64,000 bases of DNA from an uncultured Candidatus Saccharibacteria bacterium (GTDB lineage Bacteria; Patescibacteriota; Minisyncoccia; GWC2-36-17; WO2-46-25), in NCBI GenBank assembly GCA_964359755.1, contig CAYHUB010000001.1:39797-103796 (forward strand), read 5' to 3'. The position numbers and the translations under genes are program-made. Shown here piece by piece: positions 32,929 to 38,566 of the stretch. Under the pieces are notes generated by a model. It did no database searches and was not told where the DNA came from. It worked only from the letters and a program-made list of their open reading frames with translations. How positions within the stretch are numbered: the stretch's first letter is position 1; every line of letters starts with the position of its first letter.

Positions 32929-34608
32929 TTATTGTGTTTTATCTACGCGTCTTGTGGTAATGTACCATGTTTCTATCTCGGTAAACCGCCGAGCGGGTGC
33001 GCTGATATGCGTTGCGGAAATATTTTTCACGTTGTTGCTTACCGCATAGAGATACCGCGGCGAATACAGAAATATCGCAGGAATATCGGCAGTAAGAGTT
33101 TCTTGAAATTTTTTCACACTCTCGATGCGTTCGTCTCCACTGAGTGATTCCCGTATTTTTTCAAGCAGTGCATCGGCGCTCTTATTATCATACAGAGCAA
33201 GATTGAGGCCCGGGTCGCGTTTTTGCGAGGAATGCCAAAACAAATACGGGTCGGGAAGATGGGAGAGCGCCTCGCCAAAAAGCAGTGCCTCATACCGCCG
33301 TTGCTTGATAACTTGCTGTTTGAGCTCGTCTATCGTATAGGTTTCCAGCGTCACTTTTGCTCCTATCTGCTCCCATTGCGTTTTAAGCATTTCCCCGGTC
33401 TGTATAAGATCCGGAAGATCGGATGTAACGAGTGTGATCTCAAACGGCGTCGCTTCTTTGTCATTTCCGACGGTTTTTTCCCGTATCCCGTCGTTGTTTT
33501 TATCCTTCCACCCCGCATCATCAAGGATCGTCTGCGCGGCTTCGATATTGTATTCGTATTTCATTACGTCGGGATTATGTCCGGCAAGCCATGGGAGAAT
33601 GGGCGAAGTAATACTCGTCGCGTTACCACCAAATACTTCGCGCACGATTGCCGCACTGTCAGTCGCCCGCGTAAGCGCCGTGCGCACATTTTTATCCGCT
33701 AGGGCTTTGTTGCGCGTTTGATTGAAAAACACCGCAAAGTATTTCGGCATATTTAATTCGTATATATGCACGCTCCGTCGTTCGAGTTCGCTTTTTTGGC
33801 GCGGCGACACGCCGCCGATACCCATGACATCTTTTCTTTGGTATGCCTTCAATGCTTCATCGGTCGTCCGGTAAAAAAAGAAATCGATAGCGGTGATGAA
33901 GGGGGTTCTGCCGTAGAATCTCGAATGTGCCGTAAGCGAGAAGGATGCGATGCTTCCATATTTATCTTTGGTAAATTTCGAGAAACGATAAGGCCCGGAG
34001 CCGATCGGCATTACATTCGCTTCCGCGAGATTAATGTTTTTCGGATTGATATTTTCCCAAACATGTTTTGGAAGTATCCCGATCGTCATGCGTTCGAGAA
34101 ATTGAGAATACGGGTGGGGGAGTATCAGTTTGATGGCTTGATCGTCTATCTTTTCCGCCTTGATACCCTGGAGGCTTGCGCGTTGCGGACTGCCGTAATC
34201 AGAATCAAGGATCGCTGAGAAGGTAAACAGCACATCATCAATGGTCACTTTTTCTCCGTTGTGCCATTCTGCGTCATTACGGAGAAAGAACGTGTATTCT
34301 TTGCCGTCTGGGGACACCTCGTAGCGCTCGGCAAGATCGGGAATAATATTTCCTTGCGCGTCGTATTTCATCAGTCCGGAATAAACCAAAGCGGCAATAT
34401 CCCTGTCGACATCGTTGATGCCTAAAAGGATAGGATTGATGAATTGCGGTTCTCCGACCAATGCTTCGCTGTAGATGCCTCCCGGTGCGGGAATCGCGTC
34501 TGTTCGCTCGATATACGCCATCCACATCCATGCAACGCCGAATGCAAGCGTGCATACGAGCAGCCCGATCATGCTATATCGTTCTTTTACGGTAAGCGCG
34601 CGCGGCAA
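32929..34608 (-). CDS. ABC transporter substrate-binding protein, family 5 (OppA/DppA-like peptide/nickel binding)
   Basis: 559 aa, N-terminal TM/signal anchor, overall SBP_bac_5-like pattern. Confidence 0.7.
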   Translation of the reverse strand: MPRALTVKERYSMIGLLVCTLAFGVAWMWMAYIERTDAIPAPGGIYSEALVGEPQFINPILLGINDVDRDIAALVYSGLMKYDAQGNIIPDLAERYEVSPDGKEYTFFLRNDAEWHNGEKVTIDDVLFTFSAILDSDYGSPQRASLQGIKAEKIDDQAIKLILPHPYSQFLERMTIGILPKHVWENINPKNINLAEANVMPIGSGPYRFSKFTKDKYGSIASFSLTAHSRFYGRTPFITAIDFFFYRTTDEALKAYQRKDVMGIGGVSPRQKSELERRSVHIYELNMPKYFAVFFNQTRNKALADKNVRTALTRATDSAAIVREVFGGNATSITSPILPWLAGHNPDVMKYEYNIEAAQTILDDAGWKDKNNDGIREKTVGNDKEATPFEITLVTSDLPDLIQTGEMLKTQWEQIGAKVTLETYTIDELKQQVIKQRRYEALLFGEALSHLPDPYLFWHSSQKRDPGLNLALYDNKSADALLEKIRESLSGDERIESVKKFQETLTADIPAIFLYSPRYLYAVSNNVKNISATHISAPARRFTEIETWYITTRRVDKTQ

Positions 34609-34695
34609 TTCCCGCCACTGTGGCCATGATGGCCATCTGAAATTTTGAGGTCTTGTATCGATCTCAGTTCAAGTTAAAAATTCTGCGGCTACGAT

Positions 34696-34938
34696 TTAGA
34701 GTAGTAGCCGTATAAATGCGGAACCGATAAATAAAATAGAAAGCACAATGGTCGCGTAGAAGATCGTTTTTTCCATACCGCGTTTTGTGTGATACGCGCC
34801 GCTGCCGTCTCCTCCGAATGTTCCGGAAAGCCCTGCGCCGCGCTGCTGTAAAAGCACGCCGGCAGTAAACAACACCGAAACCACTATCATCGCCACATTA
34901 AGCCACATAGAAATATGATAAATTAGAAAAAATAACAA
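34696..34938 (-). CDS. secG: preprotein translocase subunit SecG
   Basis: 80 aa, two TM helices with central LLQQRGAGLSGTFGGDGSG...KRGMEK loop characteristic of SecG. Confidence 0.7.
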   Translation of the reverse strand: MLFFLIYHISMWLNVAMIVVSVLFTAGVLLQQRGAGLSGTFGGDGSGAYHTKRGMEKTIFYATIVLSILFIGSAFIRLLL

Positions 34939-34957
34939 TACACAAAAACTACCCTGC

Positions 34958-35299
34958 TTACTTTCGAAACACGATGTGTGTTATGAAATTCACCGCGCTG
35001 ACAAGCAGCGTCGCGAGAAAAAGCGCTCCGACACTTGCAATACTCATGTGCGGGAGGAGAAGGTCGGTGACCCATAGCACCCCCATATTGATGACCACAA
35101 TGAAAAGTCCTAAGGTAAGCAGAATGATCGGCCCCAGTAGTAATTTAAGCAGCGGTTTGAGGAAGAAATTTGCCGCAGAAAATACAAGTCCGACGATGAG
35201 TACGCTCTGCCACCCTCCGCTGATCGTTACCCCCGCGATATAATACGAAGCAAGGAATAACGCCAGTACATTTCCAAAGACAAGGGCGATTAATCTCAT
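34958..35299 (-). CDS. DUF360/YvlD-like membrane protein (phage-holin-4 superfamily)
   Basis: 113 aa, 3-4 TM helices, FLKPLLKLLLGPIILLTLGLFIVV pattern. TATAAT sits 8 nt upstream of the ATG, with no SD. Confidence 0.6.
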   Translation of the reverse strand: MRLIALVFGNVLALFLASYYIAGVTISGGWQSVLIVGLVFSAANFFLKPLLKLLLGPIILLTLGLFIVVINMGVLWVTDLLLPHMSIASVGALFLATLLVSAVNFITHIVFRK

Positions 35300-35351
35300 T
35301 GGGGTCTATTATAGCATAGGGAAATAAAAAAAACAATAGAGAGCAGAGGAA

Positions 35352-35384
35352 TAAAAAATCCCCCGTAGACCATTGTCTACGGGG
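35352..35384 (-). terminator. rho-independent terminator of the 65-aa gene (perfect 10-bp stem ccccgtagac/gtctacgggg)
   Basis: On the minus strand the hairpin is followed by TTTTTTATT. Confidence 0.75.
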
Positions 35385-35437
35385 AGCTGCGTTAGCGAGG
35401 TAATCTTTTTAGGTTTGACGGCATGATTTTCATTCTC

Positions 35438-35635
35438 CTACGATTTTGCAAGAATAAGCGCCAATTTTTCTACGTTTTTTTCCGACAAGGTAAATCCAGA
35501 AATCTCTGTATTAAACCTCCCACGGTCAATCATTTCCTTCATGATAACGAGAACTTCGTGGTCCTTCTCGTTCTCCGCTTCAAACTCAATTAAAAACGAG
35601 CCTGTTATTGGAATACGTACTAGCATTGCCTTCAT
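35438..35635 (-). CDS. small monocistronic protein, 65 aa, unknown function
   Basis: Consensus promoter TTGACA-N17-TATTGT. AAGGAGGT SD 5 nt before the ATG. Own terminator. Confidence 0.7.
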   Translation of the reverse strand: MKAMLVRIPITGSFLIEFEAENEKDHEVLVIMKEMIDRGRFNTEISGFTLSEKNVEKLALILAKS

Positions 35636-35690
35636 GTCATACCTCCTTTTGATTTATTTGTAAAAGTTCTCTGCCTCAATAGTAGCGCGT

Positions 35691-35719
35691 ACAATAGTGT
35701 GTTTTTTGGAAAGTGTCAA
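35691..35719 (-). promoter_or_regulatory. near-consensus sigma70 promoter (TTGACA-N17-TATTGT) for the 65-aa gene
   Basis: -35 at 35714-35719 and -10 at 35691-35696, read on the minus strand. Confidence 0.6.
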
Positions 35720-35787
35720 CTGTTTTTGTGATAAAATAAAACAGAGCGGTGAATTTTTCACCGCTCTGAATGTTGTGTGATTTTACA

Positions 35788-35979
35788 TCACTTTTTCCGC
35801 TTTTTGAAGTTATCTACTCCTTTTTCAAAAGCATCTCTCCTCTCTGCGTTGTTACTATGATCGCCAATCATTTGGCCTCTGTGCTGAAGGTGAAAAAGTC
35901 CCGCACCCTCGCTTTCTTCCTTCGCCCATTTTTGACCAGCTTCATACAAATCTTCTTTTTCTTCACTCTTAATACTCAT
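35788..35979 (-). CDS. small hydrophilic protein, 63 aa (MSIKSEEKEDLYEAGQKWAKEESEGAG...), unknown function
   Basis: AGGAGGTG SD 7 nt upstream of the Met at 35979; the ORF-track start at 36033 is probably too long. Downstream hairpin terminator at 35741-35768 followed by TTTATTTT. Highly charged, no TM. Confidence 0.65.
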   Translation of the reverse strand: MSIKSEEKEDLYEAGQKWAKEESEGAGLFHLQHRGQMIGDHSNNAERRDAFEKGVDNFKKRKK

Positions 35980-36166
35980 TGCAATCACCTCCTTTCTTCG
36001 GAAGAATCGCGCTTGGCAGATTTTAATAAACATCTGCGGCTAGATATGTATAGTACATATCTTAGGGGCTGCATATATGTATATCAGATCTGCTTTATCT
36101 TGTCAAATTTTTAGGTTAATGATTCCACGCTAATAGAGGTAGAGAGCTTTTTTGTACACGATGCAT

Positions 36167-36841: not shown

Positions 36842-38566
36842 TTACTTCAGAGGAATTCCCGTGCCGCCGCGGGCAAAGATATATGCCGGCGTCGTATTTG
36901 CGCGGGAAAGCTTTTCCCACCACGGATATGCTCTGCGCATATGCCGTTCCATCGCGAGAAAGATCTGGCGCACTTCGTGGTTCACGGAGAATTTGCTCCG
37001 TTGCCAGTTGCAAAATTCGATTTCAAGCATATTTGAAGCAAGCAGGAAGCCGATCATATTGCCCAATGAAAGCGGATATTGCATGAGCTCATCCGGAACG
37101 CCCTTTTCCTTCATTTCCGTATACAGCGCGAGGTTCGCGGCATGTATCTTTTCAAATGCTTCCGTAAGCGCGGCAGGCGCTTGCTTGTCGTAGCGGTAAA
37201 ATCCAAGCAGGGGAGTGACATACGTACGCAGATGCGTGCAGAATCCCTGCCGCTGGACGTCGCGCCATCCGCGGAATGTTATCATTCCGGCAAATGAGGC
37301 GCTTGCGAGCTCAAATTCGTTCGGGAGCTTGTCGTATTCTCCTCTCGGCGTTTCAAGGAGTTTGCCGACAACATCCGCAAACGCTATACAGTGTTCGTAC
37401 CCGATCTTTCGTGAGAATGCGCGATAGATCGTTTCTTCAGCTATTGCCGGGCTGTCCATAACCACGACCGCGTCAATTTCTGCTAATGCGTCATTTCCTG
37501 CAAACGGGGCGGTCGAAAGATATTTCCATGATTCCTGCTTCCATGCGCTCGCCTCGGTGTGGCGGATGAATTGGTCAACGCCTGTTTTTTTTGCCTCGAC
37601 GAGAATCTCGTCCACCAGCGCGATATTTTCCGGCGTGTTGTCGAGTATGAGGTGCCGGATAAGCTCCTGGAGCCCTTCGCCCGATACATTCACGCCGACG
37701 GAAGTTTGGGTACCGCAAGGCAAGAAATTACCCAGCACGTCGCACGTTTCGCCGATCACGCCGCTTTCAAGGTCTTTCTCGTTTCCCGCAAACAATGCGC
37801 CGTACTGTTTCCGTAGAAACTGCGGGAACGGACCGGTGAATTTTTCGCCTTCAAGGTCGGTGTAGAACGAAAACGCTCCGTCCATGACATCCTGCACTTT
37901 TTTCTCGTCTACGCCGTACGTGGCAAGCTCCTTGTGTATCGGGTAGTAGCCGCGCTTGCTCATATCAACGTAGCGGGTAGAAAGCTCGATATAGCCGGCG
38001 CCGGGACGGCCCCATTCGAGCGATTTTGCCGCAAGCGCGGAGATCTGTTCAAAGCATATCCATATCGCGCCCATACGCGCGATGGAGTTGTGGCCGTACG
38101 CGTCGAGCCAGCGCTTCATGAACCGCATGATCTTTTCCGCGTGCGTGAGCTCCTCAAGGAATTTCGTGTCCACGCGCACCGCATCGCGAAATGCTTCCCA
38201 TGCTTTTTTTGTTTCTGACGAGTGCGCGACGAACGCGTCGAACGATGTGATGTTGTGATGCTTGAGAAATTGCATACCATCGCCGCCAAACTTCTCTGCG
38301 GTTTCTTTCAGCATGCTTGCGAGCATCTCCGGCATGAAGTTGTCCGCGAATATACCGCGCAAACCCCGCGGATTTTTCATGCGCGAGAACATGGACAACA
38401 GCGCCGTTCCGATGCTTTGCGGAAGCGTGTGCATCAGATACACTTTTTTTTCCGTGTTTGTGAAAAACGGAGCAAGCAATTCCTGCTCGAGTTTCGTGAA
38501 CGAATAGACCGGTGTTGCAACGAACGATCGTGCGTGTGCGAGTGCTGATTTTGGGTACGTATGCAT
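36842..38566 (-). CDS. tandem-duplicated ThyX-like (flavin-dependent thymidylate synthase fold) protein, 574 aa, with degenerate RHR motifs
   Basis: The C-terminal half aligns by eye to ThyX: GVPDE...PLSLGN...NMLEIEFCNWQRSKFSVNHEVRQI...AYPW versus ThyX GVPRE..LPLNL...NFLNLRADSHAQWEIQQ...CPW. The N-terminal half carries YIELSTRYV (ThyX YNELSGRY) and LPCGTQT...IRH. The canonical R-H-R is replaced in both halves. AGGAGG SD 7 nt upstream. Confidence 0.65.
   Translation of the reverse strand: MHTYPKSALAHARSFVATPVYSFTKLEQELLAPFFTNTEKKVYLMHTLPQSIGTALLSMFSRMKNPRGLRGIFADNFMPEMLASMLKETAEKFGGDGMQFLKHHNITSFDAFVAHSSETKKAWEAFRDAVRVDTKFLEELTHAEKIMRFMKRWLDAYGHNSIARMGAIWICFEQISALAAKSLEWGRPGAGYIELSTRYVDMSKRGYYPIHKELATYGVDEKKVQDVMDGAFSFYTDLEGEKFTGPFPQFLRKQYGALFAGNEKDLESGVIGETCDVLGNFLPCGTQTSVGVNVSGEGLQELIRHLILDNTPENIALVDEILVEAKKTGVDQFIRHTEASAWKQESWKYLSTAPFAGNDALAEIDAVVVMDSPAIAEETIYRAFSRKIGYEHCIAFADVVGKLLETPRGEYDKLPNEFELASASFAGMITFRGWRDVQRQGFCTHLRTYVTPLLGFYRYDKQAPAALTEAFEKIHAANLALYTEMKEKGVPDELMQYPLSLGNMIGFLLASNMLEIEFCNWQRSKFSVNHEVRQIFLAMERHMRRAYPWWEKLSRANTTPAYIFARGGTGIPLK

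Follow-up and report, generated by a model that had tools for sequence, protein, structure and literature searches.

The window, by which we mean the whole 64,000-nucleotide stretch of DNA analysed here, carries on its minus strand a 65-codon open reading frame that lies in the slot between dcd and a holin_4_2-like gene. The genes around it encode a 574-aa ThyX-like protein, FolD, Dcd (divergently transcribed), the holin_4_2-like protein, SecG, an SBP_bac_5 protein and RNase J. The exact 65-aa protein is found in NCBI under MEK7488035.1, from a Patescibacteria MAG, and a ThyX-based scan placed the window among the Patescibacteria, close to Candidatus Azambacteria RBG_16_47_10. Many identical copies of the protein were found in groundwater of the Hainich wells H41 and H52. 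In the literature on Azambacteria and on Shine-Dalgarno (SD) and leaderless initiation in Patescibacteria, nothing was found that bears on the 65-aa gene. The features of the locus are as follows.

36842-38566, minus strand: ThyX-like gene, 574 aa, unusually long, with two Thy1 stretches and a weak Pfam score
36203-36775, plus strand: dcd, transcribed away from the 65-aa unit
35726-36158, minus strand: strain-specific insertion of about 430 bp that the near relatives L006 and L008 lack
36106-36101, minus strand: TTGACA of the candidate promoter TTGACA-N17-TATACA of a 63-aa unit, within the insertion
35994-35987, minus strand: core of the 11-nt SD AAAGGAGGTGA of the 63-aa gene
35788-35979, minus strand: 63-aa CDS, hydrophilic (MSIKSEEKEDLYEAGQKW...KKRKK), NCBI MEK7488036.1, a singleton cluster
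35742-35768, minus strand: terminator of the 63-aa unit, a 12-bp hairpin that insulates the 65-aa unit on its upstream side
35714-35719, minus strand: -35 hexamer TTGACA of the 65-aa gene, present in 10/10 loci about 70-84 nt 5' of the ATG
35691-35696, minus strand: -10 hexamer TATTGT, separated from TTGACA by a 17-nt spacer
35636-35686, minus strand: inferred 5' UTR of about 50 nt, its position deduced from the -10 hexamer
35659-35666, minus strand: CTTT(T/C)ACA motif in the 5' UTR, kept in 9/10 loci
35641-35648, minus strand: Shine-Dalgarno sequence AAGGAGGT, 5 nt (ATGAC) before the ATG at 35635
35438-35635, minus strand: 65-aa CDS, ATG start, TAG stop (35440-35438), NCBI MEK7488035.1 "hypothetical protein"
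35392-35437, minus strand: 3' UTR with relics of the ancestral C-terminal tail in frames +1 and +2
35350-35385, minus strand: intrinsic terminator, hairpin 35385-35360 and T-run 35359-35350
35308-35316, minus strand: extended -10 promoter TGCTATAAT of the holin-like gene, 8 nt before its ATG
34958-35299, minus strand: holin_4_2-like gene, directly downstream of the 65-aa unit

The preliminary description had presented this ORF as a self-contained unit with a near-consensus promoter, a strong SD and a terminator with a 10-bp stem, in a stretch where most genes lack an SD. All of these elements were recovered: the promoter TTGACA-N17-TATTGT at 35719-35714 and 35696-35691, AAGGAGGT at 35648-35641, 5 nt from the ATG, and the hairpin with its T-run at 35385-35360. 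The unit is likewise self-contained, the gene upstream having its own terminator and the gene downstream its own promoter. The promoter scores 10/12 and is the top match within the 5.5 kb scanned, although a match of this quality is not by itself above chance, as the 64-kb window holds 11 sites scoring at least 10/12 compared with 12.4 +/- 3.5 in shuffled sequences. The decisive support for the signals being real comes instead from their conservation across ten loci. TTGACA, the 17-nt spacer, the -10 hexamer and the GC hairpin with T-run stand at equal relative positions in 10/10 loci while the sequence between them diverges. The -10 counterpart is TATTGT, TATCGT or TATGGT in 9/10 loci and TATTTA in L003. 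AGGAGG is present in 9/10 loci, L010 having AAGGGGGT instead. The terminator stem of the window, CCCCGTAGAC/GTCTACGGGG, comprises 10 Watson-Crick pairs and one G-T pair around an AATG loop and is followed by ATTTTTTATT; a GC hairpin and T-run come right after the stop in each of the ten loci, with some pairs kept through changes on both sides. An Rfam search gave no match at the gathering threshold, and in E-value mode returned sub-threshold terminator-like matches alone.

The leader holds one further conserved element. CTTT(T/C)ACA occurs about 25 nt 5' of the ATG in the window, L002, L005, L006, L008, L010, L011, L031 and L032, at a position where L003 carries CTTTTAAA, and the leader around it diverges among loci; the motif could bind a regulator or enhance translation. 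The SD is of the strongest class in a genome in which such sites are rare: an SD of at least 6 nt precedes the first start in 3/58 long ORFs of the window, in line with the earlier remark on the scarcity of SDs, and AAGGAGGT is found 4 times in the window for 0.9 expected, two of the four preceding the two adjoining small genes. The 65-aa ORF is thus a genuine monocistronic protein-coding gene with a canonical sigma-70-type promoter, an SD and an intrinsic terminator, and the strength of these signals suggests that its product, whose expected tryptic peptides include IPITGSFLIEFEAENEK and FNTEISGFTLSEK, would be abundantly expressed.

The extended -10 element TGCTATAAT ends just 8 nt before the ATG of the holin-like gene, so this gene is probably leaderless. 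Of 53 genes, 8 have a TATAAT-like hexamer whose end lies 4-12 nt upstream of the start codon, compared with 2.8% at random positions; examples are the holin-like gene (35308-35316) and the sites upstream of 34908 (secG), 50144 and 53649. These counts suggest that leaderless mRNAs may be frequent in the organism of the window. The possibility, raised previously, that the small ORF merely lies under an antisense UTR of its neighbours is incompatible with the gene order: dcd points away and every gene from 32929 to 35299 is on the minus strand, leaving no plus-strand gene able to cover the unit.

We searched for homologues of the 65-aa protein. A word-indexed search and a full HMMER search of 1.84 billion representatives returned the same organism (P0001) and P0002, and nothing else. 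P0001 is a 54-aa error-truncated copy from L001 (ENA ERZ2470813, coverage 4.4) that serves as the database representative of its cluster; L001 is from the same organism as the window, and its many homopolymer-length errors split or truncate several genes, among them those for the small protein, the holin-like protein and the SBP protein. P0002 was rejected as a homologue, being a 1460-aa eukaryote-like mucin/repeat protein with an E-value of 7.5e-5 summed over 5 repeats and 23% identity; the resemblance is probably a chance match or one of analogous α/β fold patterns. The survey of conservation and synteny that had been proposed was more productive. In related contigs the syntenic slot is always occupied by a small ORF with the same signals, and a family profile was built from these positional counterparts. 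Synteny and the profile search together yielded 14 distinct proteins, 65-92 aa long and 13-32% identical to the window allele; every one of them belongs to Azambacteria-like Patescibacteria. The gene lies directly upstream of the holin_4_2-like gene and secG in every context examined, including L032, where ThyA, DHFR and dCMP deaminase are encoded, and L003, where dcd is missing. No paralogue was detected by HMM in the 64-kb window or the related loci, the gene being single-copy throughout.

The thymidylate module beside this slot is itself swapped between lineages: L010 (1113-2732) has a ThyX merely 26% identical in a different gene order, and L032 (3482-4839) carries ThyA, DHFR and dCMP deaminase in place of ThyX and dcd.

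The protein had been described as matching no recognisable family, and this holds for Pfam, NCBIfam, PHROGs, PADLOC and PDB sequence profile searches, none of which gave a significant match for the family; a Pfam scan of 10 members returned nothing and PADLOC nothing meaningful. In our data the family is restricted to groundwater Azambacteria-like Patescibacteria.

We then considered whether the ORF encodes a real protein. The frame is open in 14/14 alleles, with the ATG and the hydrophobic pattern kept throughout. L002 and L011 provide a clean comparison, since silent divergence of the small gene equals that of its flanks (34% of conserved-residue codons silently changed, 33% in the flanks). 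Between these two the small protein is 69% identical while ThyX and Dcd are 93-94% identical, and dN/dS is 0.27 for the small gene versus 0.04-0.05 for the flanks. Across allele pairs dN/dS ranges from 0.18 to 0.7 and exceeds 1 in no pair, so positive selection is not demonstrated. Protein change in the CDS is thus about 5-10 times as fast as in the neighbouring genes, yet the CDS remains under purifying selection. AlphaFold2, run with the family alignment, predicted for the window allele a confident ββαββ domain (pLDDT 83.5), with strands at residues 2-8, 13-19, 44-50 and 55-62 and a helix at 23-37. An 89-aa allele was predicted to have the same core, at about 73-93 pLDDT per ten-residue block, followed by a tail at 48-67. 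A Foldseek search with the model, a check that had been suggested at the outset, gave no match with E below 0.05, the fold being generic and without a functional label. No signal peptide or membrane segment was found in the family proteins, most of which are mildly acidic. The open frames, the low dN/dS and the domain shared by short and long alleles establish that the 65-aa ORF encodes a real protein, contrary to the earlier proviso that homologues with conserved coding potential might be lacking; the product is predicted to consist of one two-layer ββαββ domain, about 65 residues long and located in the cytoplasm.

The most distinctive property of the gene emerged from comparing two contigs of one metagenome (ERZ1292633), L006 and L008. 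Between the two, identity is 98-100% for ThyX, Dcd, the holin-like protein and SecG and 32% for the small protein; at the nucleotide level, identity is 92-100% in the flanks versus 36-66% in the CDS. The low-identity segment begins with the first base past the SD and stops shortly short of the terminator, after which identity is 100% again. Over the 9.3 kb common to the window and L006, identity drops below 70% solely in the CDS and in the 430-bp insertion. Strains of one aquifer with near-identical flanks thus carry predicted proteins only 32% identical, and an identical SecG is common to three haplotypes in Hainich groundwater samples. One haplotype carries both the 63-aa and the 65-aa gene, another the 65-aa gene alone and the third a 76-aa allele. 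The GC content of the CDS is 39%, compared with 48% for the 64-kb window.

Silent changes were used to date alleles relative to their surroundings. Between the window/L008-type and L006 alleles, 50% of conserved-residue codons are silently changed in the CDS versus 16% in the pooled flanks (Fisher p = 6e-4), the value for the adjoining holin-like gene being 1%. L010 and L011 show the opposite, with 30% silent change in the small gene versus 59% in the flanks (p = 8e-5). Allele age is therefore uncoupled from flank age in both directions, which points to cassette exchange between lineages; the pattern of divergent alleles within identical flanks comprises one clear case (L006-type versus window/L008-type) and one incongruence in the opposite sense (L010/L011). 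Read in this way, the sequences indicate that strains and lineages exchange entire alleles, and recombination within the conserved regulatory flanks is the apparent route. The dS of the flanks is itself a mosaic, from 0.01 to 0.5; recombination is therefore common along the whole region, and the allele swaps could be neutral. A second copy of the CDS, such as a template repeat of a diversity-generating retroelement (DGR), was absent from the 64-kb window.

Alleles also differ in length. In the commonest, of about 89 aa, the core is followed by a disordered linker that is acidic and rich in proline, and the chain ends in a KKxYL[C/H] motif, which is missing from the window, L006 and L003 alleles. 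Among 3065 ORFs scanned, this ending occurs in the family and in one 35-codon stop-to-stop stretch of L011 ending FLH; it is thus confined to this family bar that stretch, and we rejected KKxYLC as a common sorting tag. In the window allele the CDS ends directly behind the final strand, and relics of the missing tail persist in its 3' UTR: frame +1 gives ...MPSNLKRLPR*, sharing its TAA (35394-35392) with the tail of the L006 allele (MPQKAEPALRLPR*), and frame +2 contains KDYLA where long alleles have KSYLC. These relics identify the 65-aa protein as a truncated, core-only derivative. Since it lacks KKxYL[C/H], the sole conserved linear motif, either the tail is dispensable or the allele is partly degenerate. 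The 65-aa allele is DNA-identical in 12 contigs from several wells and samples and therefore gives no sign of ongoing diversification within the allele. One variant of it was seen in L030 (1-260; ERZ1292620, a 940-bp contig of coverage 4), where TAT stands in place of the TAG stop and the ORF continues past the terminator as far as the promoter region of the holin-like gene; either a sequencing error or genuine read-through could account for it.

The 430-bp insertion next to the 65-aa unit contains a gene of similar build. Its 63-aa gene was called on 7 contigs and has a 9-bp palindrome in its leader, and its product gave no family match. No mobile-element ends, terminal repeats or attC were found around the insertion. 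Small genes may use the interval between dcd and the holin-like gene as a landing pad. The architecture of the 65-aa gene is ordinary, and its product is already deposited as a hypothetical protein; what distinguishes the locus is the sharply bounded allele cassette and the strain-specific twin unit.

The above findings can be accounted for in several ways. The explanation that we prefer overall, tentatively and at somewhat short of an even chance, is that the gene product is abundant, acts by binding and not as an enzyme, and exists as strain-specific alleles, possibly in connection with conflict. A more prosaic alternative, doubtful in our judgement yet well worth keeping in view, is a lineage-specific accessory or housekeeping small protein (structural, chaperone-like or stress-related) under weak purifying selection, the swaps being by-products of recombination. 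Fast evolution would then mean that few residues are constrained. A dN/dS of 0.18-0.7 that never rises above 1 fits this alternative well, as do the flank dS of 0.01 to 0.5, indicative of general recombination, the replacement of the adjoining thymidylate module in some lineages, the fixed position and single copy in every lineage seen, and the simple, generic fold. It accounts less well for an imported tract that matches the CDS almost exactly, with silent divergence far above that of every flank in 9 kb, for divergent alleles coexisting in a single sample, and for strongly conserved high-expression signals, which are unusual for a gene of marginal importance. The tail relics raise the further prospect that the gene is decaying in the lineage of the window, the 65-aa allele being a frameshifted or truncated remnant that may be on its way to a pseudogene. 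The relics in other frames end at the ancestral stop, most alleles keep KKxYL[C/H], and the low-coverage contig L030 has lost the TAG to TAT. Decay is nonetheless improbable, given that the complete folded core is intact (pLDDT 83.5), that promoter, SD and terminator are intact too, that the allele is identical in its 12 contigs from several wells and samples, and that the ORF is retained in the L006 and L003 alleles, which likewise have no motif.

Two other explanations assign the function elsewhere than to the folded domain. The protein could be the precursor of a ribosomal peptide or signal, with a folded N-terminal leader from which KKxYLC is released or on which it is modified, the alleles representing strain-specific "pherotypes". 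A small ORF with strong expression signals, allelic polymorphism between conserved flanks as at comC, agrD and comX, and a conserved Cys-containing C-terminal motif after a disordered linker would all suit a precursor. We consider it very improbable, because there is no signal peptide and no adjoining gene for a maturation enzyme, transporter or receptor, because a conserved tail tip on a variable folded domain is the reverse of a leader/core arrangement, and because the window, L006 and L003 alleles have no motif and no other gene-sized ORF among the 3065 scanned contains it. Least probable of all, with hardly any weight in our view, is that the protein is non-functional and the locus acts as a regulatory RNA or as a leader ORF whose translation merely tunes read-through to the holin-like gene and secG. 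Just 5-10 nt separate the stop from the terminator stem in most alleles, and a ribosome terminating there could disturb the hairpin as it forms; the transcript also folds somewhat better than shuffled sequences (z = -2.75), mostly owing to the terminator. A dN/dS of 0.27 where silent divergence is unsaturated, a hydrophobic pattern and confident predicted fold preserved across alleles 15-30% identical, the holin-like gene's own conserved promoter and the lack of an Rfam match all speak for a functional protein instead.

Returning to the binding protein with strain-specific alleles, its mode of action may be outlined as follows. A small-protein gene would be strongly expressed from its own promoter and SD and insulated by its terminator. 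The 65-aa family protein would act by binding a partner and not by catalysis, binding being the most likely mode for a protein that is too small and has no catalytic motif. The tail, where present, would serve as a short docking peptide. Alleles would move between strains by recombination in the conserved regulatory flanks, and the retention and exchange of very different alleles would reflect a strain-specific interaction, perhaps immunity-like or inhibitor-like, in conflict with phages, hosts or competitors. That the diversity is adaptive in this sense, reflecting a strain-specific, immunity-like or inhibitor-like interaction, is speculative and at best doubtful. The most specific version is unlikely, though far from negligible: a strain-identity or conflict determinant of an undescribed kind in CPR bacteria, whose divergent alleles are kept within a single population by frequency-dependent selection and shuffled via promoter and terminator, and which neutralises or senses a strain-specific phage, host or competitor factor. 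Were this the case, the 63-aa unit would identify this intergenic slot as one in which such small genes land. No phage, defence or toxin gene adjoins the small gene, and PADLOC and PHROGs also found nothing.

Small hypothetical genes passed over by annotation abound in the genomes of Patescibacteria (CPR), and the 65-aa gene encodes a true and probably abundant protein of an undescribed, lineage-restricted family. Its signature is unusually clean, with regulatory flanks conserved at the nucleotide level and a coding cassette that co-occurring strains have exchanged. Should this variation prove adaptive, the locus would give compact and tractable access to conflict or partner specificity among strains of uncultivated episymbionts; if neutral, it would still be a useful marker with which to follow strains and recombination in groundwater Azambacteria. 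The locus also shows the use of rare strong SD sites in a partly leaderless, mostly SD-less genome.

We compared the gene with known systems. An antitoxin-like role had been put forward in the preliminary description, and like type II antitoxins the 65-aa family is small, mostly acidic and equipped with strong expression signals; unlike them, it has no partner toxin on the same transcript. We dismissed this role since there is no co-transcribed toxin, the neighbours being the divergent dcd, the insulated holin_4_2-like gene and secG, and since Pfam and NCBIfam found no RHH, HTH, AbrB or Phd/YefM domain, DNA-binding folds to which the predicted ββαββ fold does not belong. Membership of the SUI1/eIF1/YciH family was rejected on an NCBIfam TIGR01158 score of 12 bits against a cut-off of 112 and an hhalign probability of 0.2% against an E. 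coli YciH sequence. A protein-kinase-like N-lobe was rejected in the absence of a C-lobe and catalytic motifs; the resemblance to the N-lobe of APH(2'')-Id (PDB 4dbx) and to de novo ββαββ sandwiches, at about 10% identity, is topological only. The locus does not look like a DGR target either, having no near-identical template repeat in the 64-kb window and no paralogue by HMM, nor like an integron cassette, as each unit has its own promoter and the hairpins are perfect short stems with T-runs, of the terminator type.

The pherotype loci comC, agrD and comX display allelic polymorphism between conserved flanks. Like comC, agrD and comQXP, the gene studied here is a short ORF in which identity collapses between conserved flanks within one species-level population; unlike them, it encodes a folded domain, has no signal peptide and adjoins no co-varying gene for a processing enzyme or receptor. 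A RiPP or pheromone precursor was rejected on the grounds that no maturation enzyme, exporter or receptor occurs in the gene contexts examined and that the layout is reversed, the folded domain varying and the terminal motif being conserved.

In common with CdiI/Imm immunity proteins, the family members are small and cytoplasmic, lack a catalytic motif, have radically different alleles in close strains and are moved by recombination. They differ from CdiI/Imm in that no toxin gene or toxin-domain remnant adjoins them, that no Imm/CdiI Pfam match was obtained and that the gene occurs once, with housekeeping genes on either side of its fixed place in the chromosome. A toxin-like ORF upstream was found in none of the loci examined, and strain-level hypervariability with allele exchange was found. 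SSB and FtsZ consist of a folded domain, a disordered linker and a C-terminal docking peptide. Although no sequence or fold relationship links the family to these proteins and the window allele has no tail, the long alleles share this architecture, with their core, acidic proline-rich disordered linker and terminal KKxYL[C/H].
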